Both the position numbers and the translations under genes were made by a program. From Escherichia phage vB_Ec-M-J, in the sequence record OQ718158.1: a DNA stretch of 64,000 nucleotides; one strand, 5' to 3'. The notes under the pieces are model-generated. The model saw only the letters and a program-made list of their open reading frames with translations, searched no databases and was not told where the DNA came from. Positions within the stretch are counted from its first letter, which is position 1, and the number at the start of each line of letters is the position of its first letter. Positions 9,648 to 43,304 of the stretch are shown in pieces.

Positions 9648-9953
9648 ATGGATATACAAACATTCAATAAACTAAAGTACTATGACAATGGTTTTGCTAT
9701 TATCATTGATGAACTAGATGGAATACCATATGAGTATCATAATGATGTAATGAAGATAGTAAAAAGTATTTGTAATGATTTAAAAACTATTTTCGAAAAT
9801 GAATATGTATACGACTTAGGTACAAACAATAAGAAACTATACATAAAGAAATTCTGTGGAACGCATTGTGGTCTGATGGTTGATTTAGGTTTAAGTGCTG
9901 ACAACAATTTCGAAGCATGTAGTTTATATCTGGATGAAATGCGAATCTCATGA
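9648..9953 (+). CDS. hypothetical protein
   Basis: Track ORF. Confidence 0.5.
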   Translation: MDIQTFNKLKYYDNGFAIIIDELDGIPYEYHNDVMKIVKSICNDLKTIFENEYVYDLGTNNKKLYIKKFCGTHCGLMVDLGLSADNNFEACSLYLDEMRIS

Positions 9954-9979
9954 GACATATCTTGATTCGGTGATATAAT
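9952..9979 (+). promoter_or_regulatory. sigma70-like promoter, extended -10
   Basis: GAGACA 9952-9957, 16-bp spacer, TGaTATAAT with TATAAT at 9974-9979. Confidence 0.5.
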
Positions 9980-14593: not shown

Positions 14594-16012
14594 ATGAGCA
14601 TTTTAGCAATTCTTGAAAGCATTAAAAATACTAGCAGTACTCTGGGTAAAAAAGCTATTCTTGAACAAAACAAAGATAATCAAACATTACAAAAAGTACT
14701 GAAATATACACTAGACCCTTCAATTGTAAGTGGGTATAAAAAGCTACCACAAGCTGATGATGTATACCAACATATGACATTAGAAGAAGCAATTGATAAG
14801 CTAGAATGCATTTACAAACGTGGTGTGACCGGAAATGCTGGGCGTGACTTCATTGCTTCAGTACTGGGTTCAGTATCAGAAGATGACCAAGAAGTTCTTC
14901 GTAAAATGCTCACGAAGAACCTTGATTGTGGTATCCAAGAAAAGAACTGCAATGATGTGTTCGGGAAAGGTTTTATCAAAGACGAACCATACATGCGTTG
15001 TTCTTTGATTGACAAAAAGACTGCAAAGAACATTAACTTCAAAGATTATGGTTATGCTATATCAGAAGTGAAAATGGATGGTCAGTACTTGAACCACGTT
15101 GTCATTAATGGTTCATTAACTTCTACATCCCGTAATGGTAAACTATACGACTTCCTGGGTTGTCGTGATGGTGAAATGGCAGGTCTTGCTCACATCATCC
15201 AAAGTAAAGATGAACGTTTTAGTAGTGGTGTAGTCTTTATGGGTGAAGGTGTAGTACTGGACAATGATGGAGAAACCATTCTCCCACGCACTACTGGTAA
15301 CGGTATTATCCAGAAAGCTGGTAAAGATAGCATCAGTCAGAATGAAGCAATGCGTACTGTATTTGTTCTATGGGATGTTGTTCCATATGATGCATTTTGT
15401 GAAGGTGTATGGAATGTAAAACGTAAAGAACGTCGCGAGATCTTAGTAGATGCAATTAACGAACTCGGTAGTGATTTTGTTCGTATGGTTGGATTCCGTA
15501 AAGTTCTAAACATCAAAGAAGCATTTGAGTACAATAGTGAACTAATGAACGAAGGTGAAGAGGGTTCAGTACTGAAATGTGAAGATGGTATCTGGAAATC
15601 TCACACTTCTCCTAAGCAATTGAAAATGAAACTTAAAATGCAATTGGACTTGCGTATTGTTGGTTTCAATGAAGGTGAAGGTAAGCGTAAAGGTAGTCTT
15701 GGTTCTTTACAACTGGAAAGTGCTTGTGGTACATTGAAAGTTAATGTAGGTACTGGAATTAAAGAGAAAGACGCAGAATGGACGTTTAAAACCATTTGGG
15801 AAAGAATGCAAGAACTCATTGGTCAAGTAGTGACAGTAGAGTGCAATGATATTGTGTTCGATAAGCGAACTGGCGAGCCATCACTATTTTTACCAGTGTT
15901 TATTGAATTTAGATTTGACAAAAACACCTGTGACGACTATACTCGTATCTTAGAAATTCGTGATAGTGCTGTTGAGGTGTTCTCTAATAGTATTCTTGAA
16001 TCACTCGGTTAA
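14594..16012 (+). CDS. ATP-dependent DNA ligase (T4 gp30-like)
   Basis: N-terminus resembles T4 DNA ligase (ILEQNKDN); adenylation motif KMDGQ; AAGGGAA RBS. Confidence 0.9.
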   Translation: MSILAILESIKNTSSTLGKKAILEQNKDNQTLQKVLKYTLDPSIVSGYKKLPQADDVYQHMTLEEAIDKLECIYKRGVTGNAGRDFIASVLGSVSEDDQEVLRKMLTKNLDCGIQEKNCNDVFGKGFIKDEPYMRCSLIDKKTAKNINFKDYGYAISEVKMDGQYLNHVVINGSLTSTSRNGKLYDFLGCRDGEMAGLAHIIQSKDERFSSGVVFMGEGVVLDNDGETILPRTTGNGIIQKAGKDSISQNEAMRTVFVLWDVVPYDAFCEGVWNVKRKERREILVDAINELGSDFVRMVGFRKVLNIKEAFEYNSELMNEGEEGSVLKCEDGIWKSHTSPKQLKMKLKMQLDLRIVGFNEGEGKRKGSLGSLQLESACGTLKVNVGTGIKEKDAEWTFKTIWERMQELIGQVVTVECNDIVFDKRTGEPSLFLPVFIEFRFDKNTCDDYTRILEIRDSAVEVFSNSILESLG

Positions 16013-16031
16013 TCATTTATAGGAGGTAATT

Positions 16032-16832: not shown

Positions 16833-17228
16833 ATGATACATACACTTCACATTGATGATAAAATGCTTGTTATATTGGGTAGTTGTTATATGTTTCAACG
16901 ATTGGGTATGCGTATGCTATACTCTTGTGACAAAACCCAATACTACAATCCTGATGGTACTGGTACTGTGATGAAAGATAGGCATCACTTCACCAGTGAT
17001 GTAAAACAAGCAGACGATTTAGATTCATTTGCGGGAAAGGTGTATGTTCTAATTAATGATGATAGACGTGGTGGTGTGTTACCATTCAGTACTTTATCAA
17101 TTAATACGTTCTTTAAATACGAACAATTTTCAAATTCACTAAGAATGATTGAGATTGATTTTGATGACATCCCAGTTGGTATACGATATGAATTTCTTCA
17201 TGCTCTTGCATCAATAGGGGTGTACTGA
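16833..17228 (+). CDS. hypothetical protein
   Basis: Track ORF. Confidence 0.5.
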   Translation: MIHTLHIDDKMLVILGSCYMFQRLGMRMLYSCDKTQYYNPDGTGTVMKDRHHFTSDVKQADDLDSFAGKVYVLINDDRRGGVLPFSTLSINTFFKYEQFSNSLRMIEIDFDDIPVGIRYEFLHALASIGVY

Positions 17229-17611
17229 TGGAAAATATCGTTGTGTATGTAATTGAGTACAATGATGAAATAAAGTACGTAATTAATGGTTATAAACATT
17301 ACTCCAGTGCAGCCAGAAAGCTGGAAATATATTCAAAAGAAGCAAGAAACTACTGCTTAGATGATGATTCAGTTGAGGTTTGGATTGATGGAAATGCAGA
17401 GTACTTTGATGCTAACTTCTATGAAGATCTTGACAAATCAAATGAATTATACATTTATGTAGAAAATGAACGTTATTACACAAATTCTTTGTTTGACATT
17501 ACCGACTCTACGGTGTATGATAATGCTATGGTTAAGTTGTTAAAGATTGACCACGATATGTTTAATAAACATACAATTTGCGGTTTACTCGATTTTTTAA
17601 GAAACTTGTAG
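17228..17611 (+). CDS. hypothetical protein
   Basis: Track ORF. Confidence 0.5.
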   Translation: MENIVVYVIEYNDEIKYVINGYKHYSSAARKLEIYSKEARNYCLDDDSVEVWIDGNAEYFDANFYEDLDKSNELYIYVENERYYTNSLFDITDSTVYDNAMVKLLKIDHDMFNKHTICGLLDFLRNL

Positions 17612-17636
17612 ACAAATACGAACACTGTGATATAAT
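17609..17636 (+). promoter_or_regulatory. sigma70-like promoter, extended -10
   Basis: TAGACA 17609-17614, 16-bp spacer, TGtGATATAAT with TATAAT at 17631-17636. Confidence 0.5.
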
Positions 17637-17670
17637 ACTCACATCAATGAAACAATAGAGGAAAATAACA

Positions 17671-18366
17671 ATGGTTGAACAATTCAATTTTGGTGGTTAT
17701 GCTGGTGGTGAAGTTCGCAACATTTCTATTCCTTATGTAGTTGAAAAAGTTAATGGTGCAGAACGTACTTATGATCTAGCATCTCGTATGATGCAAGACC
17801 GTATCATTTTCCTTGATACTGACTTCAATGACCAAATGGCACATATCATCAAGCAACAATTGGTGTGGTTGGATTCTCAGGGTTCTGAACCAATTACCTT
17901 CTACATTAGTTCTCCTGGTGGTTCAGTACACGCAGGTTTGGGTATCGCTGACATTGCTAAGTCTTGTGTATCTCCTATCCGTACAGTAGTAATGGGTTAT
18001 GCAGCATCAATGGGTTGCTATACACAATCAGTAGTTGGGACTAAAGGTTTCCGTCTAGGTGGTAAGCGTTCTTACTTCATGTGTCATCAAGTAAGTTCCG
18101 GTACTCAGGGTCTGATTACCGATCAGAAGATTTCTTTGAAACACTCTGACGCATTGAACACACTATTGACGAAAGAAATTGCTGAAGCAGTTGGTGTATC
18201 ACACGAACAACTACTGAAAGATGCTGACCGTGACCTGTGGTTGAACGCTGAAGAAGCACTCGAATACGGTGAACATGGTTTCATTGATGGTATCATCCTT
18301 GGTCCACGCAACGAAGAAGGTAAGTATCTCGTCAAACGTCGCGGTGGCGTGGAAGAGTGGGTCTAA
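17671..18366 (+). CDS. ClpP-family serine peptidase
   Basis: ClpP-like SSPGGSVHAG, catalytic-Ser context AASMG, His context CHQ; GAGGAAAA RBS. Confidence 0.8.
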   Translation: MVEQFNFGGYAGGEVRNISIPYVVEKVNGAERTYDLASRMMQDRIIFLDTDFNDQMAHIIKQQLVWLDSQGSEPITFYISSPGGSVHAGLGIADIAKSCVSPIRTVVMGYAASMGCYTQSVVGTKGFRLGGKRSYFMCHQVSSGTQGLITDQKISLKHSDALNTLLTKEIAEAVGVSHEQLLKDADRDLWLNAEEALEYGEHGFIDGIILGPRNEEGKYLVKRRGGVEEWV

Positions 18367-18380
18367 TTTGAATTTCATTT

Positions 18381-18408
18381 GATGCCTCATTTGGGGCATC
18401 TTATTTCT
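18381..18408 (+). terminator. rho-independent terminator
   Basis: GATGCC...GGCATC hairpin followed by TTATTTCT. Confidence 0.5.
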
Positions 18409-18417
18409 GGAGATTAT

Positions 18418-18708
18418 ATGAAAGTTCTTGTACGTAATAATACTGAAGTCAATGATGTGTTGGATGATTCAGAGTTTATTAATGTCGCATTAGATCAGAT
18501 TAGTGCAGTAGCTCTTGAATTGAAAGGTGTTGACGAGGCAGAACGAGTACTCAATGGTTTTTCTATTGTTCTCGAACTAATGCAAGAAGTTCTTATTAAA
18601 AAGAACATTAATCCAATTAACGCAGTTCAACACGCAGAAGCTATGCGTCAAGAACATGGCACATTCTCAGATAAAAAATTCATCAGTACTGACGAGGGGA
18701 AAGAATAA
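18418..18708 (+). CDS. hypothetical protein
   Basis: ATG at 18418 with GGAG RBS; the longer track ORF would include the terminator hairpin. Confidence 0.5.
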   Translation: MKVLVRNNTEVNDVLDDSEFINVALDQISAVALELKGVDEAERVLNGFSIVLELMQEVLIKKNINPINAVQHAEAMRQEHGTFSDKKFISTDEGKE

Positions 18709-18709
18709 T

Positions 18710-19156
18710 ATGTCTAATGCACAATACAAAGAAGGTTCTGCCGCGTTTAAAAACAAAGTAGTTTTTAACAATGAACAGCTAAAATCACAGCACCCACTAT
18801 TCCGTCAAGGTTATCGTGCTGCACAAGCTGAAGCTATGAAGAAAAACAACGTAACATTCCCAACAACTCTGTATGATATTCCTAAACGTCCATCAGTGTT
18901 TAAAGCAGAATGGACTGACATTATGGCAGCAACTAAACGTCCTCGTTTTGCTAAACTTCACACTGATGAAGGTCGCTGGATGTTGATGGGTATTATGAAA
19001 GCAGTTGAGAAACAGGCACATACCATCGTTCGTTACAAAGACGTTGTAGCTATGGTTGATAAAGCATTTGATCTTATTCTCCAGTACGGTTATGATGAAG
19101 GTGTACTAACTGTATCTGATTGTGAGCAGTACCAGTACACTCCATTCCAGAAATAA
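18710..19156 (+). CDS. hypothetical protein
   Basis: ATG at 18710 with GAGGGGA RBS; within track ORF 18656..19156. Confidence 0.55.
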   Translation: MSNAQYKEGSAAFKNKVVFNNEQLKSQHPLFRQGYRAAQAEAMKKNNVTFPTTLYDIPKRPSVFKAEWTDIMAATKRPRFAKLHTDEGRWMLMGIMKAVEKQAHTIVRYKDVVAMVDKAFDLILQYGYDEGVLTVSDCEQYQYTPFQK

Positions 19157-19163
19157 TTACTTA

Positions 19164-19192
19164 GGGAATCTTTCATGATTCCCATTTTATTT
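19164..19192 (+). terminator. rho-independent terminator
   Basis: GGGAATC-TTTCAT-GATTCCC hairpin followed by ATTTTATTT. Confidence 0.65.
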
Positions 19193-19284
19193 GCTGCATA
19201 TCAAAAATTATTGATCAAAAATTGATCCATACGAGGTAAATACCCAAGGTGTAATTGTTAATAGGGTAGGTGGATATGCAGCAA
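19191..19284. repeat. 12-bp perfect inverted repeat flanking a ~70-bp AT-rich loop
   Basis: TTGCTGCATATC (19191-19202) and its reverse complement GATATGCAGCAA (19273-19284); the loop contains ATTGATC twice. Confidence 0.6.
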
Positions 19285-19428
19285 TATAAATTATCTGAAG
19301 ATCAAAGTGATTTATTTTTCAATCACATGTTTTTAATTGATGAATTTGCCGAAAGTTAAAATTCAGAGGCAATAGCTATAGTTAAAAAGTGGTATTCTTG
19401 CTATAACAAGAACAAAAAATGGTATTGG

Positions 19429-19794
19429 TTGAATAGAAATTTAAAATCATTTCTAGGAACAATAACTAGTACTGATAGTATTGAACTAATATATAGTTCC
19501 ATTGGCTATAGTTACTTAACCAAGCATAATAATACGTCAATAGAGTCTGGCTTTAAAATCAAGCGTCTAATGAAATTGACGGGATTGAGTGCAGAAACTA
19601 TACAAAACGATACAGAAAAGTTATGGAAGATTATAGAATTCATGAATAAAAATATGTCATTTATATATAGAAACTATGATATATTCACTGATGTACGACA
19701 ATTTTATAAGAGTCCATATTCACTTAATGAGAAATATTTCCGACACATGGAATTATGCTCAACTATGGTTGATGAATGGAATTTAGAGGATTAA
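19429..19794 (+). CDS. hypothetical protein
   Basis: Track ORF. Confidence 0.45.
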   Translation: MNRNLKSFLGTITSTDSIELIYSSIGYSYLTKHNNTSIESGFKIKRLMKLTGLSAETIQNDTEKLWKIIEFMNKNMSFIYRNYDIFTDVRQFYKSPYSLNEKYFRHMELCSTMVDEWNLED

Positions 19795-19795
19795 T

Positions 19796-20323
19796 ATGAA
19801 ATACACTGCTCTTAGCCCAACTGATACTAAAGTATGGTTGAGTAATTTGAACAAAACTATTATTTTAACCAAAAAAGTGATATCAACAGCTAATTCATTA
19901 GATGTAAATATCAAGAAGAATGTTCTTAAATATCATCACCGAAGTAAACTTAGTACTTGGTACTCCAATATTTTTTACGGCTTATATGGGATGGATGATA
20001 TTTTAATTGGTACATCATCTGGGTCATGCTTCAGTGCTGGTGGTATGTGCTTTATGGATTTGGGTTTTTCATTATCCGATGAAGAAATCGAGTTTAAACA
20101 ATTCCGTGACAAGTTACTGGGTTCGGGTGATATCAAGTTCTGTACAGAATTAATGGGAGCATGGGACGTTTATGCAGCGAAACCATTTGACATTGAAGAA
20201 TCAGATGTGCTAAACTACCTTCGTGTTCTTAAAATACATTCGAACTGTAAAACCAAATTACAATCCCTAGGAGTATATGATGAAACACTTGACGTGGTTG
20301 AAGATAGCCGAAGTCGTGGCTGA
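19796..20323 (+). CDS. hypothetical protein
   Basis: Track ORF; AGAGGA RBS. Confidence 0.5.
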   Translation: MKYTALSPTDTKVWLSNLNKTIILTKKVISTANSLDVNIKKNVLKYHHRSKLSTWYSNIFYGLYGMDDILIGTSSGSCFSAGGMCFMDLGFSLSDEEIEFKQFRDKLLGSGDIKFCTELMGAWDVYAAKPFDIEESDVLNYLRVLKIHSNCKTKLQSLGVYDETLDVVEDSRSRG

Positions 20324-20759
20324 AGAGAGTAAATGCATTTCACAGAAAGTTGGTTGTGTTATTGTTAAAAATAACCGAGTATTGAGTACTGGTTATAATG
20401 GCACTCCATCTAAACAACCTAACTGCTGTGACGCTAATGAGCACTTAGTTAATGGTGGACGTTTCCAAGACTGGGTTAGCGATGACGCAAAGCATGAACA
20501 CCATGAATGGAGTAATATCCATGAAATCCATGCTGAAATGAATGCATTGTTATACAGTTCACCTACCGAACGTCAGGGAGCAACACTTTACACAACGCTG
20601 CAACCATGCTATACTTGTTCTAAGTTGATCGCGGGAAGTGGTATTGCTCGCGTGATTTATCACAAAAGTTATCCTCGCACTCCACCAGAAGCTATTAAAG
20701 TACTGGAAGATGCTGGGATTATTGTAAATTGCATTTATGATAAGGGGTTGGGACTTTGA
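20277..20759 (+). CDS. cd: dCMP deaminase (cytidine/deoxycytidylate deaminase zinc-binding domain)
   Basis: HAEMNAL and PCYTCSKLI zinc-binding motifs. Confidence 0.8.
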   Translation: MMKHLTWLKIAEVVAEESKCISQKVGCVIVKNNRVLSTGYNGTPSKQPNCCDANEHLVNGGRFQDWVSDDAKHEHHEWSNIHEIHAEMNALLYSSPTERQGATLYTTLQPCYTCSKLIAGSGIARVIYHKSYPRTPPEAIKVLEDAGIIVNCIYDKGLGL

Positions 20760-21016
20760 CTTTCTTGATTTTAGGTATCCCATTTGCAGTTGTGATTCTT
20801 GTACTTTTAGTGATGATGGTATTAAATGATAATACTACTCCACCAGTGATGCGTAATCATGAAGTACGATTTTCAGCACAAAACAACAAGTACTACATTG
20901 TAAATTGTTTAACTTGTAAAGAGTATAAAGTAACTGGTAAATTTGGTTTTACCATTTATTATAAAGACCGTGTTGAAGCTGACATGATTTGTCAGAAACT
21001 TAATACGGTAGAATAA
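20756..21016 (+). CDS. small membrane-anchored protein
   Basis: N-terminal hydrophobic helix; track ORF. Confidence 0.45.
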   Translation: MTFLILGIPFAVVILVLLVMMVLNDNTTPPVMRNHEVRFSAQNNKYYIVNCLTCKEYKVTGKFGFTIYYKDRVEADMICQKLNTVE

Positions 21017-21050
21017 AAAAAAAAGGAGCCATAAGGCTCCTTTTTCTTTT
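21014..21050. terminator. rho-independent terminator (A-run/T-run flanked)
   Basis: AAAAAAAAA-GGAGCC-ATAA-GGCTCC-TTTTTCTTTT. Confidence 0.75.
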
Positions 21051-21137
21051 GTTAGTACACAACTTGTTTGAATTTCAGGAAAACTCTTAGATCCAACAAC
21101 GAGTTCAGTACTACCACGTTATTTGTTGACAAAAGCA

Positions 21138-21165
21138 TAGACATTATACATTAGTGTGATATAAT
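21138..21165 (+). promoter_or_regulatory. sigma70-like promoter, extended -10
   Basis: TAGACA 21138-21143, 16-bp spacer, TGtGATATAAT with TATAAT at 21160-21165. Confidence 0.5.
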
Positions 21166-21233
21166 CATTCAAAAGAAGGTAAAAAGGTGGGATGATTCTG
21201 CGAGGGAATTTGTGAAGTGATATAAAAAACAAT

Positions 21234-21260
21234 TTGACTTAAGTTAAATCTTCCTATAAT
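21234..21260 (+). promoter_or_regulatory. sigma70-like promoter
   Basis: TTGACT 21234-21239, 15-bp spacer, TATAAT 21255-21260. Confidence 0.5.
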
Positions 21261-21300
21261 ATTATTTATGTAATCAACAATCAACTAAGAGGGTTAACCA

Positions 21301-21909
21301 GTGGTACGATTATGTAAAGAAATCATCCAATCTATTATTATTATTTTCTTAATTAACTTTCCTGCAAGTGCAGGTGTTGAAAGAAAAAGTATCATTAGAT
21401 ATGATGAATCTAAACAGACAGTTCAGTTCATTTCAACTTTAACTGAAAATACTGTAAACCGTTTGATGGTTTTTAGAGAAACACACCCATTTGACACTAT
21501 CATCATTACGTCACCTGGTGGTGATTTTGATGCGGGAGTGGCACTAGGAAATTTTGTCAATGATAACAATTTAACAATTATTGTTGAAAGATATTGTAAT
21601 TCTTCTTGCACTATCGCATTCTTTAGTGCTAATATAGAAAACAGATACATGATGAAGGACTCAATTCTAGGTCTACATAATGTGTCAATCGAAAGTAAAG
21701 CACGAAATAGTGATGACACATACATATCAGTTCGCCAAATGACTATTTTTGCTGAACAGCTATCAACTAAGGTTGGTGTTCTATTTGCGTTATATGCAGC
21801 GAATGGTATTCCTCCAGAATTGTTAGTGGAGGTTAGTAAGGTTCGTGGTAATGAAGTTGTGAGACTTACACCAGATCAGTTGCTCGAATTAGGTAGTATC
21901 ATTCATTAG
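21301..21909 (+). CDS. putative secreted ClpP/SppA-fold serine peptidase-like protein
   Basis: Hydrophobic signal-like N-terminus (IIIIFLINFPASA); ClpP-like ITSPGGDFDAG motif; GTG start with AGAGGG RBS. Confidence 0.5.
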   Translation: MVRLCKEIIQSIIIIFLINFPASAGVERKSIIRYDESKQTVQFISTLTENTVNRLMVFRETHPFDTIIITSPGGDFDAGVALGNFVNDNNLTIIVERYCNSSCTIAFFSANIENRYMMKDSILGLHNVSIESKARNSDDTYISVRQMTIFAEQLSTKVGVLFALYAANGIPPELLVEVSKVRGNEVVRLTPDQLLELGSIIH

Positions 21910-22001
21910 TATTAGATACAAAATAATAATATTATAATAAGAGGATGATAAAGTGGTACATCCTTTGTTATAAGTTCACATACACTAGGAGTGTATAAAC
22001 T

Positions 22002-22262
22002 ATGACAAATTTACAAAACTTAACATCTCTTGTTTTTTATGCAACAACTATTGTATATTGCATTACATTAGTTTTAACATGTTTCATCTATAAAGACTAC
22101 AAACGTGGTTTTATGGATTCCAGTACACACAAATTTGCATCCAAGTTAGAAGCAGGAATTTACTATGTTCTATCAATTTCTTATGGAGCATGTTTACTTA
22201 CACTAGGGTTGCTGATATACTGGTTGTATACGGCACTTTTTGCACAAGGAGTTATTTCATGA
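22002..22262 (+). CDS. small membrane protein
   Basis: Two hydrophobic helices; AGGAG RBS. Confidence 0.45.
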   Translation: MTNLQNLTSLVFYATTIVYCITLVLTCFIYKDYKRGFMDSSTHKFASKLEAGIYYVLSISYGACLLTLGLLIYWLYTALFAQGVIS

Positions 22263-22852
22263 CTTGTATTATCGCTCACACAAATGGCACATCTTCCTTC
22301 ATCGCTGGTGATAAATTAGGAAGCAATGGTTTCACTAAAGCAGTTCAAACTGAGCCTAAAGTGTTTGAGAAAGAGTTCATTAAACTCAATGAGGATGGTC
22401 TTTCTCGCACTAAAGAAGTAATGGCGTTGGGGTATACTACCTCGTTCCGCATGGGACAGTTGTTGAATTACAACCTAACTCTACCAGAACAAGTTGCAGG
22501 GGAAACCTTTTCACAGTATCTAGTACTGAAAGTTATTCCTATCATTCGTCAAATGTTTAAAGATGAATGGGGTGCTCGTGATGCATCACAAGATGTTGGT
22601 GGTGGTCAGTTCATTATTCTTCATAATCATACGATTTATGAAGTTCAAGAAGACTTTTCAGTACTGCAACCTAAAACACAAATTACTGCTGTCGGAAGTG
22701 GGACTTATCATGCAATTGCATCCATGTCAGCGTATATTGAAGTTCAAGAAGAAACCAATGTTCAGTTACATGAACGTGTTGAGTCTATTTTCAAAATTGT
22801 TAGTGATAATGTAACAAGTGTTAGTCCAGAGTTTGATATTTTGAAATACTGA
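22259..22852 (+). CDS. HslV-like Ntn-hydrolase (proteasome beta-subunit-like) peptidase
   Basis: After Met, N-terminal Thr (TCIIA..NG...IAGD) as in HslV; C-terminal AVGSGTYHA resembles HslV GSGG; AAGGAG RBS 7 nt upstream of ATG 22259. Confidence 0.55.
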   Translation: MTCIIAHTNGTSSFIAGDKLGSNGFTKAVQTEPKVFEKEFIKLNEDGLSRTKEVMALGYTTSFRMGQLLNYNLTLPEQVAGETFSQYLVLKVIPIIRQMFKDEWGARDASQDVGGGQFIILHNHTIYEVQEDFSVLQPKTQITAVGSGTYHAIASMSAYIEVQEETNVQLHERVESIFKIVSDNVTSVSPEFDILKY

Positions 22853-22883
22853 GAATAATAATTATAAAGAGAGAGTGTATCTG

Positions 22884-23075
22884 ATGGCATACATAATTTA
22901 CGAGTGGATTTTTTGTTTCATAGTTGTGTTTATTTGTGTGGTGTTATACAATCACACTAAATGTTTATACCGAGAATTCAGGAATGGTAATAAACATGGA
23001 CACAATAAGTGGATGTATGTCTATCATATTGCTATCATTGTATTTTTAGTATTAAACTTGATACTTTTTATATAA
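22884..23075 (+). CDS. small membrane protein
   Basis: Hydrophobic ORF; ATG at 22884 after an AG-rich RBS. Confidence 0.4.
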   Translation: MAYIIYEWIFCFIVVFICVVLYNHTKCLYREFRNGNKHGHNKWMYVYHIAIIVFLVLNLILFI

Positions 23076-23084
23076 GGAGTAAAT

Positions 23085-23837
23085 GTGATATCAGATAAAT
23101 TTATACAAAATGCTGGGAACAAAAGATTACTTATAATTTCAGGGGCAGGTCTTTCAGTTGAGAGCGGGATGGAACCATTCCGCTTTGATGATGGGTTGTG
23201 GGACAATTTCAAAATTAATGATGTTTGTAACATTGCACGACTTAGTTCTAAGTATCATGTAGTTCATTCATTTTATAATACATTGCGTGTAAAATTAGGT
23301 GAATGTCATCCTAATGAAATGCATTACTTTATTAAATCATTAGAAGATTTGTATGGTGATTGTTTTTTACACATGACTTCTAATATGGATGATCTATATA
23401 CTAGAATTGGTGGAACCGAACTCAAACTACACGGCAATTTATGTGAAGTAATTGAGAACTTTTCTATTAATACCGATGATTACAATGTCATTAATTGTGG
23501 TTATGAACCATATATTCCTAAAGCTGATGTTTTTGCAAAACCAAATGTAGTGATGATTGGTGAGTATCATCGCTACGTTGATGGGGTACGTCTCCCCATT
23601 TATGAAGAACGAAATGAAGTGTTGAAAAGTCTCACAGAAAATGATACAGTTGTAGTTATTGGAAGTAGTGATACAGTACTGGTATGGTCCAGACTAGCTG
23701 GTGCACTTCCATGCTATAGTGTAAATGTTAACATCCGAAAAAATGATAATGATTTTCTTTTTAATGAGAAGGTCATCAAACCTGCGACGAAAGCAATTCC
23801 ACAGATTGAAACTATAATTAAGGAACGAATGCGATGA
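23085..23837 (+). CDS. Sir2-family (sirtuin-like) NAD-dependent deacylase/ADP-ribosyltransferase
   Basis: GAGLSVESG..FR..GLW; TSNMD (TQNID-like); VVVIGSS; GTG start with AAGGAG RBS. Confidence 0.7.
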   Translation: MISDKFIQNAGNKRLLIISGAGLSVESGMEPFRFDDGLWDNFKINDVCNIARLSSKYHVVHSFYNTLRVKLGECHPNEMHYFIKSLEDLYGDCFLHMTSNMDDLYTRIGGTELKLHGNLCEVIENFSINTDDYNVINCGYEPYIPKADVFAKPNVVMIGEYHRYVDGVRLPIYEERNEVLKSLTENDTVVVIGSSDTVLVWSRLAGALPCYSVNVNIRKNDNDFLFNEKVIKPATKAIPQIETIIKERMR

Positions 23838-24385
23838 GTAAAGCGGAAGTACCACTGGGGCAAATGGGGAAACGTGCAAATTTTGTATTCTGTTTCTTTT
23901 ATGCAAAAGAATGTACCCCATACGCTGGTTATGAACTAAATGATATCCCAGTGGTTAACTTAGTACTCCTACAAGTGCGTTGGGATGGATTGTTGGGTGC
24001 ATGTGGTGGAACAGTTGAAAGTACTGATAAGTCATTAGAAGATGCGTTACAGCGTGAAGTTCAAGAAGAAATGAACTATATCATTGACAAAAGTCGCCTG
24101 TCTCCATTAAAATCACTTGAATTGTTTCCAGAGGGACACTCACATAGCTATAGTTATGAAATGACTTATGCTGAACTTAAAAAACTTCGTGATAATTATG
24201 CATATGGCAAACATGCTAGTGCAGAGGTGGCTGGTGTAAATTTATGTCACATCTCTCGTTATTCGAAGGGACAAAATCGAGAAGCAGGATATAATAATCT
24301 TATGACACAGAACTTCATCGGAACTGCGAAACAAGAATTAGAGTATCTTGTACAAAAAGAAAACTTACTAATCAGCTATCTATAG
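23834..24385 (+). CDS. Nudix-fold hydrolase-like protein
   Basis: Near-canonical Nudix box GGTVE..x..ALQREVQEE with one extra residue. Confidence 0.5.
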   Translation: MSKAEVPLGQMGKRANFVFCFFYAKECTPYAGYELNDIPVVNLVLLQVRWDGLLGACGGTVESTDKSLEDALQREVQEEMNYIIDKSRLSPLKSLELFPEGHSHSYSYEMTYAELKKLRDNYAYGKHASAEVAGVNLCHISRYSKGQNREAGYNNLMTQNFIGTAKQELEYLVQKENLLISYL

Positions 24386-24394
24386 GAGTTTAAA

Positions 24395-24715
24395 ATGTCG
24401 TACTCAATGTTCTTGGATGATATTCGTGATTATCAAAAATATTATCCTGACCAAGAGATGGTATTGTGTCGTGACTACGAAAGTGCATGTGAATACGTAA
24501 TCAAAAATGGAATTCCAGCATTTGTCTCATTTGACCATGACTTGGGTGACTTGAGTACAGATGAGAAAACGGGATACACTTTTGCCAAATTTCTAATTGA
24601 TTATATGTTTGAGCATAATATTAAAGAACCATTTAAATACTATGTACATAGTAGTAATCCAGTAGGGAAAGTTAATATTGAAACTTACTTAACTAATGGA
24701 TTTAATGCACTATGA
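24395..24715 (+). CDS. hypothetical protein
   Basis: Track ORF; TAGGAG RBS. Confidence 0.5.
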   Translation: MSYSMFLDDIRDYQKYYPDQEMVLCRDYESACEYVIKNGIPAFVSFDHDLGDLSTDEKTGYTFAKFLIDYMFEHNIKEPFKYYVHSSNPVGKVNIETYLTNGFNAL

Positions 24716-25014
24716 TTTCAACACATATCAAGAGTCTTATTTGCACAACACTGTTAGGTATAGGTGTTCTATGGTTCAGTTCATATCATGAGAACACTAA
24801 ACGTTACAATATTCATTACAATGCAGCGACTGTAACAGGATTAGGTCAATGTAATGAAAATAAATGCTCATTTACTTATAAAACCAGTACTGGTGAAGTT
24901 CGTAATGGGTTATCAAGAGATCCAGTATCAATTGGTCAACTAGTTTACCAGGAATGCTGGGAGGAAAAGGCTCGTGGTTCAAGATGTTATGTTGAATACG
25001 AACCGAGCATGTAA
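24712..25014 (+). CDS. membrane-anchored hypothetical protein
   Basis: N-terminal TM helix; ATGA overlap. Confidence 0.5.
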   Translation: MISTHIKSLICTTLLGIGVLWFSSYHENTKRYNIHYNAATVTGLGQCNENKCSFTYKTSTGEVRNGLSRDPVSIGQLVYQECWEEKARGSRCYVEYEPSM

Positions 25015-25075
25015 TATTCCGAGTCACTAACCATTAGTCGAGTACAAGGATGTACTCATAACTCAAGGATGTTTT

Positions 25076-26515
25076 ATGAAAAAATATACAATTGACACAA
25101 ACGTACTACTATCTGATCCAAATGCTACCATTGCTTTTGATGGAGCAGCTATCATTCTACCGTTCACAGTACTTGAAGAATTGGATTCAATTAAAAGTCG
25201 TAATGTGGATGTTTCCCGTGATGCTCGTGTTGCAATCCGTAACATTGAAGCTATCCTTTCTGATGCATCACATGAAGAAATTAGTAGTACTGGTGTTAAT
25301 ATTGCTGATGTTCATACTAATATGAGTCCTGAAAGCAAATTGTTTGTTATTACAAGCGAAGAAGCTGAAGCACTAATTCGTACTGCTGGTAACGAAGAGA
25401 AAGTTCAAACTCTTCTAAAAAGCACAGTACCAGATGATAAAATCATTTTAGTAGCATTAGCAACTGATTCAGTACTGGTTACCCGTGATATCAATATGCG
25501 TATCAAGGCTCTAAGCTACGGGGTGGAAGTTCAAGATTATCGTCATGATATCGTGATTGGTGATAGTGATTTGATTCACATTGGTCAACATCACCTTGAC
25601 CTACATTTCTGGGATGTGTATAGTAATCTGACTGATGTATCTATTCAGTCTGAACAAGTTGGTCGTCGTTTGTACCACTACATTCCAAAAAGCTTGATTG
25701 AACATATCATGCCACAAAATATTTGCATCGGTGATTACCTATATGATAATGCTGATGTTCTATTTGTGTACGAAGGTCAATCTGCAATTGAAGAAGATGA
25801 TGGTACTTTAACACCAGAAGATATTCTTGTATTCCAAGATATTGGACAATCTGTTGCTCTACGTGCTAAAGTGTGGGATATTAAGGCTAAGAATATTCAA
25901 CAAGCACTAGCAATCAACAGTATCCTAGATCCTGATGTTCATCTAACAGTACTGTTAGGTTCAGCAGGTACTGGTAAAACACTAATCACCATTGCAACTG
26001 CACTAGAGTTAGTTCTAGAGAAGAAAAAATACGACCGTATCATCTTCTCCAAAACACAAGATTCCCAATTCGAAGACATTGGTTTCTTGCCTGGTTCTGA
26101 AGCAGAGAAAGTGATTCCTTTCTGTGGTGCGGCAATCGATGCGTTGGAATTCCTACACAAAGATGATGCTAACCCACAAGGCAGTATCGAAGAAATCATG
26201 AAACGCAATGTTATCCAATTCAAAGCACTAAACTTCGTTCGTGGTCGTTCTTTCACAAATACTATCCTAGTAGTTGATGAATTCCAGAACATCACACCTG
26301 CTCAGGCAAAAACAATCTTGACTCGTGCAGGGATGAACTGTAAAGTGGTTATTATGGGCAACTTGAGCCAGATTGACTCTAAATTCATTAGTCCAGTAAA
26401 CAGCGGCCTAACTTATGTTACCGAGAAGTTCAAGAACTGGGACGGCTGTCGTGTAATCGAACTAGAAGGTGTCGTTCGTTCACCACTAGCAGAATTTGCA
26501 GAAGAAAATATGTAA
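25076..26515 (+). CDS. phoH: PhoH-like ATPase with N-terminal PIN domain
   Basis: Walker A LLGSAGTGKT, Walker B VVDEFQN; N-terminal PIN-like acidic residues. Confidence 0.85.
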   Translation: MKKYTIDTNVLLSDPNATIAFDGAAIILPFTVLEELDSIKSRNVDVSRDARVAIRNIEAILSDASHEEISSTGVNIADVHTNMSPESKLFVITSEEAEALIRTAGNEEKVQTLLKSTVPDDKIILVALATDSVLVTRDINMRIKALSYGVEVQDYRHDIVIGDSDLIHIGQHHLDLHFWDVYSNLTDVSIQSEQVGRRLYHYIPKSLIEHIMPQNICIGDYLYDNADVLFVYEGQSAIEEDDGTLTPEDILVFQDIGQSVALRAKVWDIKAKNIQQALAINSILDPDVHLTVLLGSAGTGKTLITIATALELVLEKKKYDRIIFSKTQDSQFEDIGFLPGSEAEKVIPFCGAAIDALEFLHKDDANPQGSIEEIMKRNVIQFKALNFVRGRSFTNTILVVDEFQNITPAQAKTILTRAGMNCKVVIMGNLSQIDSKFISPVNSGLTYVTEKFKNWDGCRVIELEGVVRSPLAEFAEENM

Positions 26516-42209: not shown

Positions 42210-42776
42210 ATGGTCAAATCTTTACTACCACCACCAAAGCGTCACAAAATCCAAGAAATGAAAGACCAACGTACATTAAAGATGTACAACAATTTAGTTA
42301 AGTTACTGTGTAAAAGTCCATCGCTCAAAGCAGAGTTTAAAACTGATGATGACCGCAAAGCACTAATTGAGATGAAGTATATGCTCAGTAAAATGTCCTT
42401 TTACAAATTTGTAAAAGAATACGCATCTGACCCATTTAGTCCTCGTTGGAGAACCAAACCAAGAGAGTTTTTTTTCGGTGGTTCATATACTGATATCATT
42501 CAAGATACTGTGATAGGCGTAGAGTTCGAGATTGATTATGAGCCGAATGGTGTGGAAAACTTGCTGATTGAGAAACGTTTACCAAGTGAAGAAGAAATTT
42601 ATGTTTATGCAAGAAAACTTTCAACTTACAGTTCAAGAATTACTCTAGGCAAGTTAGATTCATTTATTATTTTCTATATACGTGTTGGCGTAGACAAAAT
42701 GGTAACTAAACTCAATGAACTTTCATTACAACAAAAACAGATTAATGCATACAAAGACATTACTGATTTATACTAA
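42210..42776 (+). CDS. small paralog family member 1 (188 aa)
   Basis: Shares N-terminal motif (SPSLKAEFKTDDDRKALIEMKYMLSK) with the next two genes. Confidence 0.55.
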   Translation: MVKSLLPPPKRHKIQEMKDQRTLKMYNNLVKLLCKSPSLKAEFKTDDDRKALIEMKYMLSKMSFYKFVKEYASDPFSPRWRTKPREFFFGGSYTDIIQDTVIGVEFEIDYEPNGVENLLIEKRLPSEEEIYVYARKLSTYSSRITLGKLDSFIIFYIRVGVDKMVTKLNELSLQQKQINAYKDITDLY

Positions 42777-42788
42777 TGAGGAATGAAT

Positions 42789-43304
42789 ATGTTTTTTGGC
42801 CCAGTTGGAAAACAAAACAGTACTTTAATTTGGCATGAAATTATCTTTAAAATTATATCAAAAAGTTTCACACTTAAAGATATCATCAATACAGATCAAG
42901 ATCGTCGTGTTCTGTTAGAAGCAAAATATAAATTGAGCAAACACCCTTTGCTACCATTAATCATTGATTACGTTAATGATTATGAATCCAGTCGTTGGAA
43001 GTTTGAAGAAGGCGGTTTATTTCGTGGAAAAACATTCTACGGTGCGGAACGATATGTATTCAGTGATGCAACAAATGGCGTTAAGTTTGCTATTAGAAAC
43101 TTTAACTCCAAAGAAAATGATTATCTTGAAAGTGGAGTGAAAGTATATATCGATAACAATAGCAATGTTCTAACATATGACGAATCACTAATTATGTTAC
43201 AAATAATGCGTGGCGTTGAAGGTGTAAGACACAATCTTACTAATTTGAAAATTCAGCAAAATGATATACATAATAGACAGAAAATTAAGGGTTTATATAA
43301 ATGA
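42789..43304 (+). CDS. small paralog family member 2
   Basis: FTLKDIINTDQDRRVLLEAKYKLSK; ATG 42789 with GAGGA RBS. Confidence 0.5.
   Translation: MFFGPVGKQNSTLIWHEIIFKIISKSFTLKDIINTDQDRRVLLEAKYKLSKHPLLPLIIDYVNDYESSRWKFEEGGLFRGKTFYGAERYVFSDATNGVKFAIRNFNSKENDYLESGVKVYIDNNSNVLTYDESLIMLQIMRGVEGVRHNLTNLKIQQNDIHNRQKIKGLYK

Follow-up and report, generated by a model that had tools for sequence, protein, structure and literature searches.

Why does a jumbo coliphage carry three protease-like genes within about 5 kb, and do their products act together? We addressed this in a 64,000-nucleotide stretch (hereafter the window) of Escherichia phage vB_Ec-M-J (OQ718158.1). The phage is Asteriusvirus-like, with 98-99% identity to WPEC5, Ecwhy_1 and fEgEco12 in a comparison over the window and about 80% identity to PBECO4 and 121Q. 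The trio pointed out in a preliminary description was borne out in coordinates and families: genes A, B and C are all confirmed plus-strand entries of the ORF list (Table 1), and their neighbours encode DNA ligase, dCMP deaminase, Sir2, Nudix and PhoH. Profile and structure searches returned the expected fold and family for each, with assignments far beyond chance, and the catalytic residues checked in alignments are all conserved (Ser/His of A and B, Thr1 of C). The genes are real and, from these residues, their products look catalytically active. We think it rather probable that they are non-structural peptidases without common ancestry, transcribed from separate units in an early/nucleotide-metabolism block, namely a ClpAP-paired A, an exported B and an HslU-free C. 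The early timing is presumed, as are the oligomeric states and all substrates.

Table 1. Coordinates of the genes and sites discussed (positions in the window, except for the TH47 gene).
Feature	Coordinates	Strand	Basis or remark
Extended -10 promoter-like site, sigma70 type, TAGACA-N13-TGTGATATAAT	17609..17636	+	11/12 consensus; 35 nt before clpP start
Gene A, ClpP, 231 aa	17671..18366	+	Pfam CLP_protease, NCBIfam, PDB matches
Terminator-like hairpin directly 3' of clpP	18381..18400	+	8-bp stem, 5 GC pairs, T-rich tail
Strong terminator-like hairpin between dCMP-deaminase block and gene B	21020..21045	+	11-bp stem, T run
Second copy of the promoter-like motif TAGACA-N13-TGTGATATAAT, upstream of gene B	21138..21165	+	consensus match
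Gene B, ClpP-fold Ser-His hydrolase, 202 aa, GTG start	21301..21909	+	AAGAGGG Shine-Dalgarno
Predicted signal peptide of gene B, residues 1-24	21301-21372	+	cleavage between ASA and G
Predicted two-TM membrane protein, 86 aa	22002..22262	+	ORF list; TAGGAG Shine-Dalgarno
Gene C, proteasome-beta/HslV/BPH-type N-terminal-Thr hydrolase, 197 aa	22259..22852	+	alignment, profile, structure
ClpA-type gene of the relative TH47	289538-291823		tblastn 1.9e-140; NCBIfam ClpA 7e-226

A phage ClpP and its candidate unfoldase

Gene A had been described as a canonical ClpP-like peptidase, which its family matches and complete triad support. The product matched Pfam CLP_protease at 1.3e-41 (142.9 bits, cut-off 20.2) and 109 ClpP sequences in the PDB (best 3.3e-36); the NCBIfam ClpP match reached 6e-45, yet stayed under the equivalog cut-offs (153 vs 308.6). 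Identity to E. coli ClpP is 37-38%. The Ser113/His139/Asp188 triad is intact in the alignment, the N-terminal gating loop is kept (P4, V6, E8, E14, R15 and D18), and the protein carries an N-terminal extension of ~19 aa and a basic C-terminal tail of ~20 aa. Judged by its sequence, gene A is a genuine ClpP that should be catalytically competent. Its docking pocket is altered at four of the eight hydrophobic positions (Y60T, F82S, F112L and L114G), and the same remodelling is seen in phage ClpP orthologues just 54% identical to one another.

The search for unfoldase partners suggested earlier succeeded for ClpP and failed for gene C, for which no phage HslU was found. A ClpA-type double-AAA+ unfoldase gene lies beyond the window in all eight close relatives, at least 99% identical in the 8 records; we infer the ClpA of the source phage from these relatives, which are at least 98% identical to it. 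The TH47 protein aligns with E. coli ClpA from end to end at 43.7% identity. Its Walker motifs and both pore loops (KYR and GYVG) are retained, it lacks a ClpB-type middle domain, and IGM takes the place of the IGL ClpP-docking loop of E. coli ClpA. ClpA is conserved out to phages RaK2, CBB, PA5oct and Atu_ph07, and ClpP is carried by the same groups. Neither a phage ClpS nor a phage ClpX was found. The ClpA gene in 8/8 relatives, the 44% identity and the IGM loop point to a phage-encoded ClpAP protease as the unit that A likely forms. A would pair with the phage's own ClpA-type unfoldase, and the resulting ClpAP machine may unfold and degrade cytoplasmic proteins in infection. That host proteins are the targets, as the preliminary description suggested, is plausible, and such an action has been proposed before for jumbo-phage ClpP (PMC7824862).

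Alternatively, phage ClpP might hijack host ClpX or ClpA, or form mixed tetradecamers with host ClpP, changing host Clp degradation, with phage ClpA as a separate chaperone or translocase, roles suggested for it previously (PMC7824862). We regard this as unlikely, even though A keeps the unfoldase-contacting N-terminal gating loop and shares 37% identity with host ClpP, and clpP and clpA are far apart (~88 kb across the record ends in TH47) with no co-transcription. The altered pocket, presumably similar to the non-docking ring found in heteromeric ClpP1P2 systems, counts on the same side. Against it, the IG(M) tripeptide of phage ClpA sits exactly at the docking-loop position and the ClpB-type middle domain is absent, ClpA and ClpP co-occur in the same jumbo-phage lineages, and pocket changes common to distant phage orthologues fit co-evolution with a private partner. 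Equally, the altered pocket could mean that A binds no ClpA/ClpX-type loop at all. Pairing of A with the phage ClpA remains our preferred reading.

A probably exported ClpP-fold hydrolase and a threonine hydrolase

The earlier view of gene B as a ClpP/SppA-fold protein with a signal-like N-terminus holds: it matched phrog_26024 'protease' at 3.7e-70, the hydrophobic stretch is real and the Ser/His residues are conserved. Hydropathy at the N-terminus peaks at 3.07 (Kyte-Doolittle) over residues 8-18, followed by P-A-S-A and then G, the cleavage between them being judged by eye and hydropathy only. A hydrophobic or lipobox-like N-terminus is common to all members of the family, phage and cellular; among phages the family occurs in 47 records, all RaK2-like. 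S71-x-G73-G74, C99-x-S101-x-C103 and H126-N127 are invariant. The precursor would carry a Sec signal peptide that is cleaved off, and the protein, a Ser101/His126 ClpP-fold hydrolase that needs no ATPase partner, probably acts in the periplasm or the cell envelope. Whether it is a protease is less certain, because no Asp is conserved in the family alignment where ClpP has its triad Asp, and the Pfam CLP_protease score is borderline (just 20.6 bits, cut-off 20.2).

For gene C, the proposed HslV-like N-terminal-Thr hydrolase is supported by an invariant Thr1 together with profile and Foldseek matches to HslV. Its ATG start at 22259 is preceded by an AAGGAG Shine-Dalgarno sequence, and the product begins M-T-C-I-I-A. 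It matched phrog_1040 'peptidase HslV family' at 2.6e-22, its family profile matched PDB HslV at 7.6e-8, and an AF2 model (pLDDT 92.2) retrieved HslV (1.8e-10) and BPH (TM 0.75) in Foldseek; the HslV family model gave 18.9 bits, well short of the cut-off of 137. In a 34-sequence alignment of the family, M1, T2, C3, D18, K34, G146 and G148 are invariant, which in Met-less numbering gives the catalytic set Thr1/Asp17/Lys33/GSG. Only the jumbo-phage clade has an 18-aa hairpin inserted after Lys33. The family is present in 197 phage records, T5-like phages included. In one T5-like phage and one Vibrio phage the homologue likewise has genes for RNR, thymidylate synthase, PhoH and ligase around it. 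Assignment as a PPH was rejected, because gene C has 197 aa and all four flanking helices, whereas a PPH has ~140 aa and no H2. Removal of the initiator Met would expose Thr1, and the product is predicted to be a proteasome-like (HslV/BPH-type) peptidase that, given the absence of a phage HslU, would act alone or with a host factor.

Either or both products may be something other than proteases, B another ClpP/crotonase-fold hydrolase or a non-catalytic binder, and C an Ntn-type amidase or ligase with a non-protein or very specific substrate. Not every proteasome homologue is a protease, connectase being one example (PMC8665760); we nonetheless consider this quite improbable.

The stop codon of the 86-aa ORF overlaps the gene C start (ATGA). 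In fEgEco12 this ORF bears the name g215 and is labelled a hypothetical protein, and it gave no significant match in a Pfam search; a joint role of the two-TM protein with gene C is speculative.

Capsid maturation and the arrangement of the block

The suggestion that these enzymes process virion components found no support. As anticipated, the T4-type prohead protease belongs to another family: a Peptidase_S77 gene (phAPEC6 gp227c, Pfam 9.9e-21) adjoins the major capsid gene, between the scaffold and portal genes, and its product is present in virion MS; the TH47 orthologue (254769-255383) is beyond the window. The counterparts of A, B and C (gp353c, gp346c and gp345c) are all missing from the 62-protein phAPEC6 virion proteome determined by MS. 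Automated annotation has placed the label 'head maturation protease' on A or B in WPEC5, fEgEco12 and the PBECO4 RefSeq record, A matched phrog_94 'head maturation protease' at 9.5e-44, and many phages have ClpP-fold prohead proteases (NCBIfam NF045542 and NF045540 matches). However, the head-maturation model related to ClpP gave A 51 bits (cut-off 120) and cellular ClpP models gave it 153-156, sigma70-like promoters mark the early metabolic block in which the genes stand, and the predicted signal peptide of B is incompatible with acting inside proheads. A head-maturation or virion-processing role for any of the three is therefore largely refuted and very unlikely.

Promoters and terminators were called as consensus matches. 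The extended TAGACA-N13-TGTGATATAAT motif has 3 copies in the window against 0.10 expected, whereas the overall promoter-like count in the region (46 vs 39 +/- 5.6 in shuffled sequence) is not above expectation. The copy before gene A may serve as its promoter, and the 3' hairpin suggests that clpP is its own transcription unit.

That all three genes fall inside 5.2 kb, with A-B spacing kept from Asteriusvirus to RaK2 (ClpP 300148, B 304573) and in metagenomic relatives, might indicate one proteolytic module, a cascade or shared pathway. We find this extremely unlikely. The whole ligase-to-PhoH block is syntenic, and remains so in a metagenomic relative with a B at 23% identity, so the proximity is inherited with this early-gene block and is no evidence for a functional module. 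Terminator-like and promoter-like sites separate the units, and the predicted compartments differ (cytoplasm vs periplasm). The metagenomic relative L004 lacks gene C although its gene order otherwise agrees; most RaK2-type phages lack it too, yet T5-like phages without A and B have it. With separate transcription units and unlike phyletic patterns, the best explanation is that A, B and C do not make one system.

Relation to known systems

Gene A resembles the ClpP of bacterial ClpAP (S14 ClpP with Hsp100 ClpA) in fold, family, Ser-His-Asp triad and gating loop, and phage ClpA resembles its partner in N-D1-D2 architecture, pore loops and docking-tripeptide position. A differs in its 37% identity, sub-equivalog score, 4/8 pocket changes and extra conserved basic C-terminal tail, and the phage set in having IGM, not IGL, and genes ~88 kb apart in an arrangement unlike that of the host. 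Earlier work recorded ClpP in jumbo phages and the conservation of ClpA across RaK2-like phages (Attai 2018, PMC6102473; Iyer 2021, PMC7824862); these are the same genes as here. Neither paper reports experiments on these Clp proteins, and both present ClpA as a potential chaperone or translocase, with no explicit ClpP pairing, IGM loop or pocket changes. Near-identical genes carry database annotations, and the literature already covers phage homologues of ClpP, ClpA and the proteasome; the finding is fairly ordinary, though solid.

The T4 gp21-type prohead protease (S77) is also a phage-encoded serine protease, in the same type of genome, but its fold and family are unrelated, its gene is next to those for the capsid, it occurs in virions and it has no match to A, B or C. 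For B, the closest known systems are SppA (S49) and NfeD/PH1510 (clan SK), secreted or membrane ClpP-fold peptidases. Gene C shares with HslV/BPH the proteasome-beta fold, Thr1/Asp17/Lys33, the oxyanion Gly, GSG and the lack of a propeptide, with group I proteasome homologues a compact subunit, and with PPH, AAH and CPH (Fuchs et al. 2021, PMC8665760) its carriage by phages. It differs from HslV in identity (17-20%) and in a phage without HslU, and is set apart from HslV/BPH and the phage homologues by its invariant Cys2 and the clade-specific 18-aa hairpin after Lys33.

A divergent phage ClpP and a candidate ClpA partner

The 17000-23000 region is 98-99% identical to that of eight jumbo E. 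coli myophages (WPEC5, Ecwhy_1, fEgEco12, EC.P1, CMSTMSU, Turkey3, TH47 and WPEC3) and ~80% identical to the Asteriusvirus PBECO4/121Q/phAPEC6 group. Its early/metabolic block runs in the order DNA ligase, metallophosphoesterase, clpP (gene A), dCMP deaminase, a ClpP-fold gene (B), an HslV-type gene (C), Sir2, Nudix, cREC and PIN-PhoH; the order is preserved in a metagenomic jumbo phage in which B is just 23% identical. A, B and C are already annotated in nearly identical genomes. The preliminary description had noticed three protease-like genes within 5 kb, and the observation is therefore correct from their coordinates together with the Pfam and PDB matches of A, the Pfam and PHROG matches of B and the PHROG and NCBIfam matches of C, profile and structure evidence being needed for B and C.

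Coordinates of the three genes, their flanking signals and related loci (window positions unless a genome is named)
Feature	Position	Strand	Remark
Gene A, clpP	17671-18366	+
Gene B, ClpP fold	21301-21909	+
Gene C, HslV/BPH type	22259-22852	+
Promoter-like site 5' of A	17609-17636		consensus match
Basic C-terminal tail of A	18304-18366		..KRRGGVEEWV; ..LRRGNKVEYI in metagenomic relative L004
Terminator-like hairpin 3' of A	18381-18400
Strong terminator-like hairpin before B	21020-21045
Extended -10 promoter-like motif before B, as at A	21138-21165		TAGACA-N13-TGTGATATAAT
Sir2	23085-23837		downstream of C
Nudix	23834-24385		downstream of C
cREC_REC cyclic-phosphate-processing receiver domain	24395-24715		downstream of C
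PIN-PhoH	25076-26515		downstream of C
S77 (T4 gp21-type prohead protease) orthologue	TH47 254769-255383		locus distinct from A, B and C
ClpA-type double-AAA+ unfoldase, 762 aa	TH47 289538-291823 (piece L014 44538-46823)	-	outside the window

Judged by its sequence, A is a real ClpP, divergent and not the housekeeping orthologue. It scored 142.9 bits against PF00574 (CLP_protease; cut-off 20.2, 1.3e-41), matched 109 PDB ClpP sequences (best 3.3e-36) and shares 37-38% identity with E. coli ClpP. The triad S113/H139/D188, in the motifs AASMG, MCHQV and DADRD, corresponds to E. coli S97/H122/D171, and the N-terminal gating loop is preserved (P4, V6, E8, E14, R15 and D18). Scores of 153.3 and 156.4 bits fall below the NCBIfam ClpP equivalog/subfamily cut-offs of 308.6 and 249 (TIGR00493 and NF001368, respectively). 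A basic C-terminal tail of ~20 aa, missing from E. coli ClpP, is common to all phage ClpP orthologues. In E. coli ClpP, eight hydrophobic residues form the docking pocket for the IGF/IGL loop of ClpX/ClpA. Of these, Y62, M92, I90(V) and L189(I) are preserved in A and the other four positions are altered (Y60T, F82S, F112L and L114G); PBECO4 and a metagenomic orthologue of 54% identity show identical or comparable changes.

E. coli ClpX, ClpA, HslU, Lon and ClpS were used as tblastn queries against the whole assembled genome of the close relative TH47. ClpA was the sole query giving a partner gene (43% identity over 579 aa, E 1.9e-140); no HslU, ClpX, Lon or ClpS partner was found in that genome. 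The encoded protein has ClpA as its best NCBIfam model (7e-226), aligns with E. coli ClpA along its entire length at 43.7% identity and is without the ClpB-type middle domain. Both sets of Walker A and B motifs are retained, as are the KYR and GYVG pore loops, and I-G-M stands at the exact position of ClpA's ClpP-docking I-G-L loop. Eight records (TH47 and seven other relatives) carry the gene at 99% identity or above, and phage ClpA is conserved through RaK2, CBB, Yersinia, Erwinia, PA5oct and Atu_ph07 phages, the same groups that have ClpP. A is matched by a candidate cognate Hsp100 unfoldase with the docking tripeptide, encoded in relatives outside the window, and the remodelling of the ClpP pocket fits co-evolution with a private phage ClpA. 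Phage ClpA has been considered a possible chaperone and jumbo-phage ClpP a probable anti-host peptidase (PMC7824862), and RaK2-like phages are known to conserve ClpA (PMC6102473). No experimental study of phage-encoded ClpP came up in literature searches, and the PA5oct omics paper makes no mention of Clp.

The ClpP-fold protein B and the Thr1 hydrolase C

Of the three proteins, least is understood about B. It barely exceeded the Pfam ClpP cut-off (20.6 vs 20.2 bits) and matched phrog_26024 'protease' at 3.7e-70; a single-sequence PDB search gave no match, and profiles and structure models were required. Word-indexed searching returned 10 close relatives only. An exhaustive profile search retrieved 1486 proteins at E<1e-3, through which B leads to a large family of putatively secreted bacterial ClpP-fold proteins. 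Across 19 full-length relatives, to 23% identity, S71, G73, G74, C99, S101, C103, H126, N127, Y165, G169 and P171 are invariant; S-x-G-G, C-x-S-x-C and H are still invariant in the longer cellular members. In hhalign, S101 and H126 fall on the ClpP Ser and His. The full Ser-His-Asp triad was not recovered, as the Asp position aligns with V186, and no Asp or Glu is invariant or nearly so anywhere in the family alignment. B has the ClpP fold, and shows neither the Ser-Lys dyad nor the closest structural similarity of an S49-type (SppA/NfeD) enzyme. Nine of ten family members had no match in a Pfam scan and the remaining one matched NfeD1b_N weakly. The names of the cellular members are uninformative (just one carries a 'ClpP class serine protease' label), and so are their neighbours, which are toxin-antitoxin genes or an efflux adaptor.

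The N-terminus of B, MVRLCKE-IIQSIIIIFLINF-PASA/G (hydropathy peak 3.07), looks like a classical Sec signal peptide, with predicted cleavage after Ala24. The model of B has a helix at 2-19, a disordered linker and then the domain, and all cellular members examined have hydrophobic or lipobox-like N-termini. With the predicted ASA/G signal peptide and such N-termini family-wide, the putative localisation of B differs from that of a cytoplasmic, ATPase-coupled enzyme. B probably acts as a hydrolase in the periplasm or envelope, its export, activity and substrate being putative. Among phages, B occurs in RaK2-like jumbo phages only (47 records). Between this clade and PBECO4, B is 52% identical and neighbouring enzymes mostly 88-97% (ClpP 96%, C 88%, Nudix 78%); the small membrane ORFs diverge similarly to B.

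C matched phrog_1040 'peptidase HslV family' at 2.6e-22 and had no Pfam match. Against the NCBIfam HslV models it gave 9e-4, with 18.9 and 18.1 bits, below the cut-offs of 137 and 157.75 (NF003964 and TIGR03692, respectively), and a single-sequence PDB search gave only 0.16, profiles and structure models again being required. We found 72 homologues. In an alignment of 34 sequences, to 25% identity, M1, T2, C3, D18, K34, G146 and G148 are invariant and G58 nearly so; by alignment these are the proteasome set of Thr1/Asp17/Lys33, oxyanion Gly and G-S-G. In the PDB, the family profile matched HslV first (7.6e-8), followed by beta subunits of bacterial proteasomes and by BPH. Foldseek with the AF2 model (pLDDT 92.2) likewise gave HslV (1.8e-10) and BPH (TM 0.73-0.75), and the model assigns C a proteasome-beta fold. 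An AAGGAG Shine-Dalgarno sequence lies upstream of the start ATG at 22259; presumed removal of the Met would expose Thr1, as in HslV. Conservation of the catalytic residues, raised in the preliminary description, was seen for the triad of A, the Ser and His of B and Thr1 of C, but B is without a conserved Asp.

Phage proteasome homologues PPH, AAH and CPH have been described, PPH being of ~140 residues and without helix H2 (Fuchs et al. 2021; PMC8665760). C is not a PPH, because it has 197 aa and four model helices (63-72, 84-104, 149-161 and 170-184). The C family spans 197 phage records. Most come from T5-like phages of Salmonella and Escherichia, and Vibrio, Aeromonas and Geobacillus phages are represented as well; there the homologues again lie among RNR, thymidylate-synthase, PhoH and ligase genes. 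E. coli HslU, searched by tblastn against the whole TH47 genome, hit the ClpA gene only, and weakly (7e-4). Of the co-encoded unfoldase partners that the preliminary description proposed to look for, a ClpA-type candidate was found in relatives for A, and no HslU was found in TH47 for C.

Invariant cysteines adjoin the nucleophiles of both B and C, with disulfide, metal or redox control as possible roles. Two small predicted membrane-protein ORFs flank C (22002-22262 and 22875-23075). The upstream one (86 aa, two-TM) has a stop that overlaps the start of C (ATGA) and is translationally coupled to it. A gene for a small membrane protein (DUF3307; piece L019, 3549-3902) also directly precedes the C homologue of the T5-like phage Sw2. 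Small membrane genes beside C may reflect coincidence or a membrane link.

Capsid maturation and organization of the locus

The family calls of the preliminary description stood, as did its view that none of the three is a T4-type prohead protease: PF03420 (Peptidase_S77) matched none of A, B or C. The processing of virion components that it also considered was not supported. In phAPEC6, gp227c is a Peptidase_S77 protein (9.9e-21) encoded between scaffold and portal genes, adjoining the major capsid gene, and is present in the virion proteome; the A, B and C orthologues (gp353c, gp346c and gp345c) are absent from that list of 62 proteins. Against NF045542 (ClpP-related head maturation protease; cut-off 120), A and B scored 51.1 and 15.5 bits, and the 51 bits of A compare with 153-156 on cellular ClpP models. 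A head-maturation role of A, B and C is rejected on the S77 gene beside the capsid gene and the absence of all three from the phAPEC6 virion proteome. In WPEC5, fEgEco12 and the PBECO4 RefSeq record, A or B carries a 'head maturation protease' label, in all likelihood an artefact that arose from PHROG naming.

We also considered A, B and C as a single operon or module, and rejected this on the terminator-like hairpins, promoter-like sites and discordant phyletic patterns. Three copies of the promoter-like motif TAGACA-N13-TGnTATAAT lie in the window, at 9952-9979 and at the sites before A and B, vs 0.1 expected. Its recurrence suggests host-sigma70 (early) transcription, and it may be the early-promoter consensus of the phage. 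ClpP and ClpA are group-wide, B is found in a subset, and C in Asteriusvirus and unrelated phages. The syntenic relative L004 lacks C; NadR-like, NAMPT and Acb1 genes occupy its stretch between B and Sir2.

Several further features of the locus were observed. The 285-bp intergenic gap at 21017-21300 has a terminator-like hairpin and a promoter-like site; PBECO4/phAPEC6 have there a minus-strand 378-bp gene (gp098/gp347) encoding a protein of the phAPEC6 virion proteome, and two distant relatives (L004 and L023) a minus-strand Big_2 gene. This clade has apparently lost the gene. The block directly 3' of C (23085-26515) resembles NAD/cyclic-nucleotide counter-defence, and metagenomic relatives have in the same place also NadR-like NMN adenylyltransferase-Nudix, NAMPT and Acb1 genes (L004 8697-12697). 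PADLOC gave zero matches to defence systems for A, B, C and the flanking small ORFs. The window corresponds to TH47 1-45378 and 326420-352450. Megablast gave no TH47 match for the 3' portion of the DNA ligase gene (15081-16022), and ~0.9 kb here corresponds to ~2 kb in TH47, which may carry an insertion. Both ends of the TH47 record have matches at window 42737-43163, which points to a terminal repeat or to permutation of the record.

A possible proteolysis toolkit

The three enzymes could form a private two-compartment proteolysis toolkit, with an orthogonal cytoplasmic ClpAP, a periplasmic B and, in C, an ATPase-independent proteasome-like particle; we consider this proposal rather unlikely as a whole. 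The T60/S82/L112/G114 pocket and the IGM loop would insulate phage ClpAP from host ClpX, ClpA and ClpP, and phage ClpAP would degrade host or defence proteins on the phage's own schedule. B would be the first virus-encoded secreted ClpP-family enzyme, a fast-evolving Ser-His hydrolase in which the two Cys flanking the nucleophile may be disulfide-linked; it might cut envelope or receptor proteins, with superinfection exclusion, receptor destruction or lysis timing as possible outcomes. The putative particle of C would be shared with T5-like phages.

If these inferences hold, the phage would be independent of host proteolysis, being equipped with an ATP-dependent ClpAP, a ClpP-like enzyme that is exported and a proteasome-like peptidase, all phage-encoded, and would offer a tractable E. 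coli system for what large phages degrade at takeover; host regulators, defence proteins and envelope components are candidate targets. The main present value lies in correcting the misleading 'head maturation protease' labels in several GenBank/RefSeq records. Added here are the candidate ClpA partner with its IGM loop and the remodelled ClpP pocket; the predicted signal peptide, C-x-S-x-C/Ser-His signature and large cellular family of B; the complete catalytic set in C; and the exclusion of a capsid-maturation role.

No new kind of system is revealed, and phage ClpP is now linked to phage ClpA. The C-x-S-x-C around the nucleophile of B (residues 99-103, window 21595-21609), invariant in the whole family including cellular members, is absent in ClpP, and Thr1-Cys2 (C residues 2-3, window 22262-22267), invariant throughout the C family, is absent in HslV.
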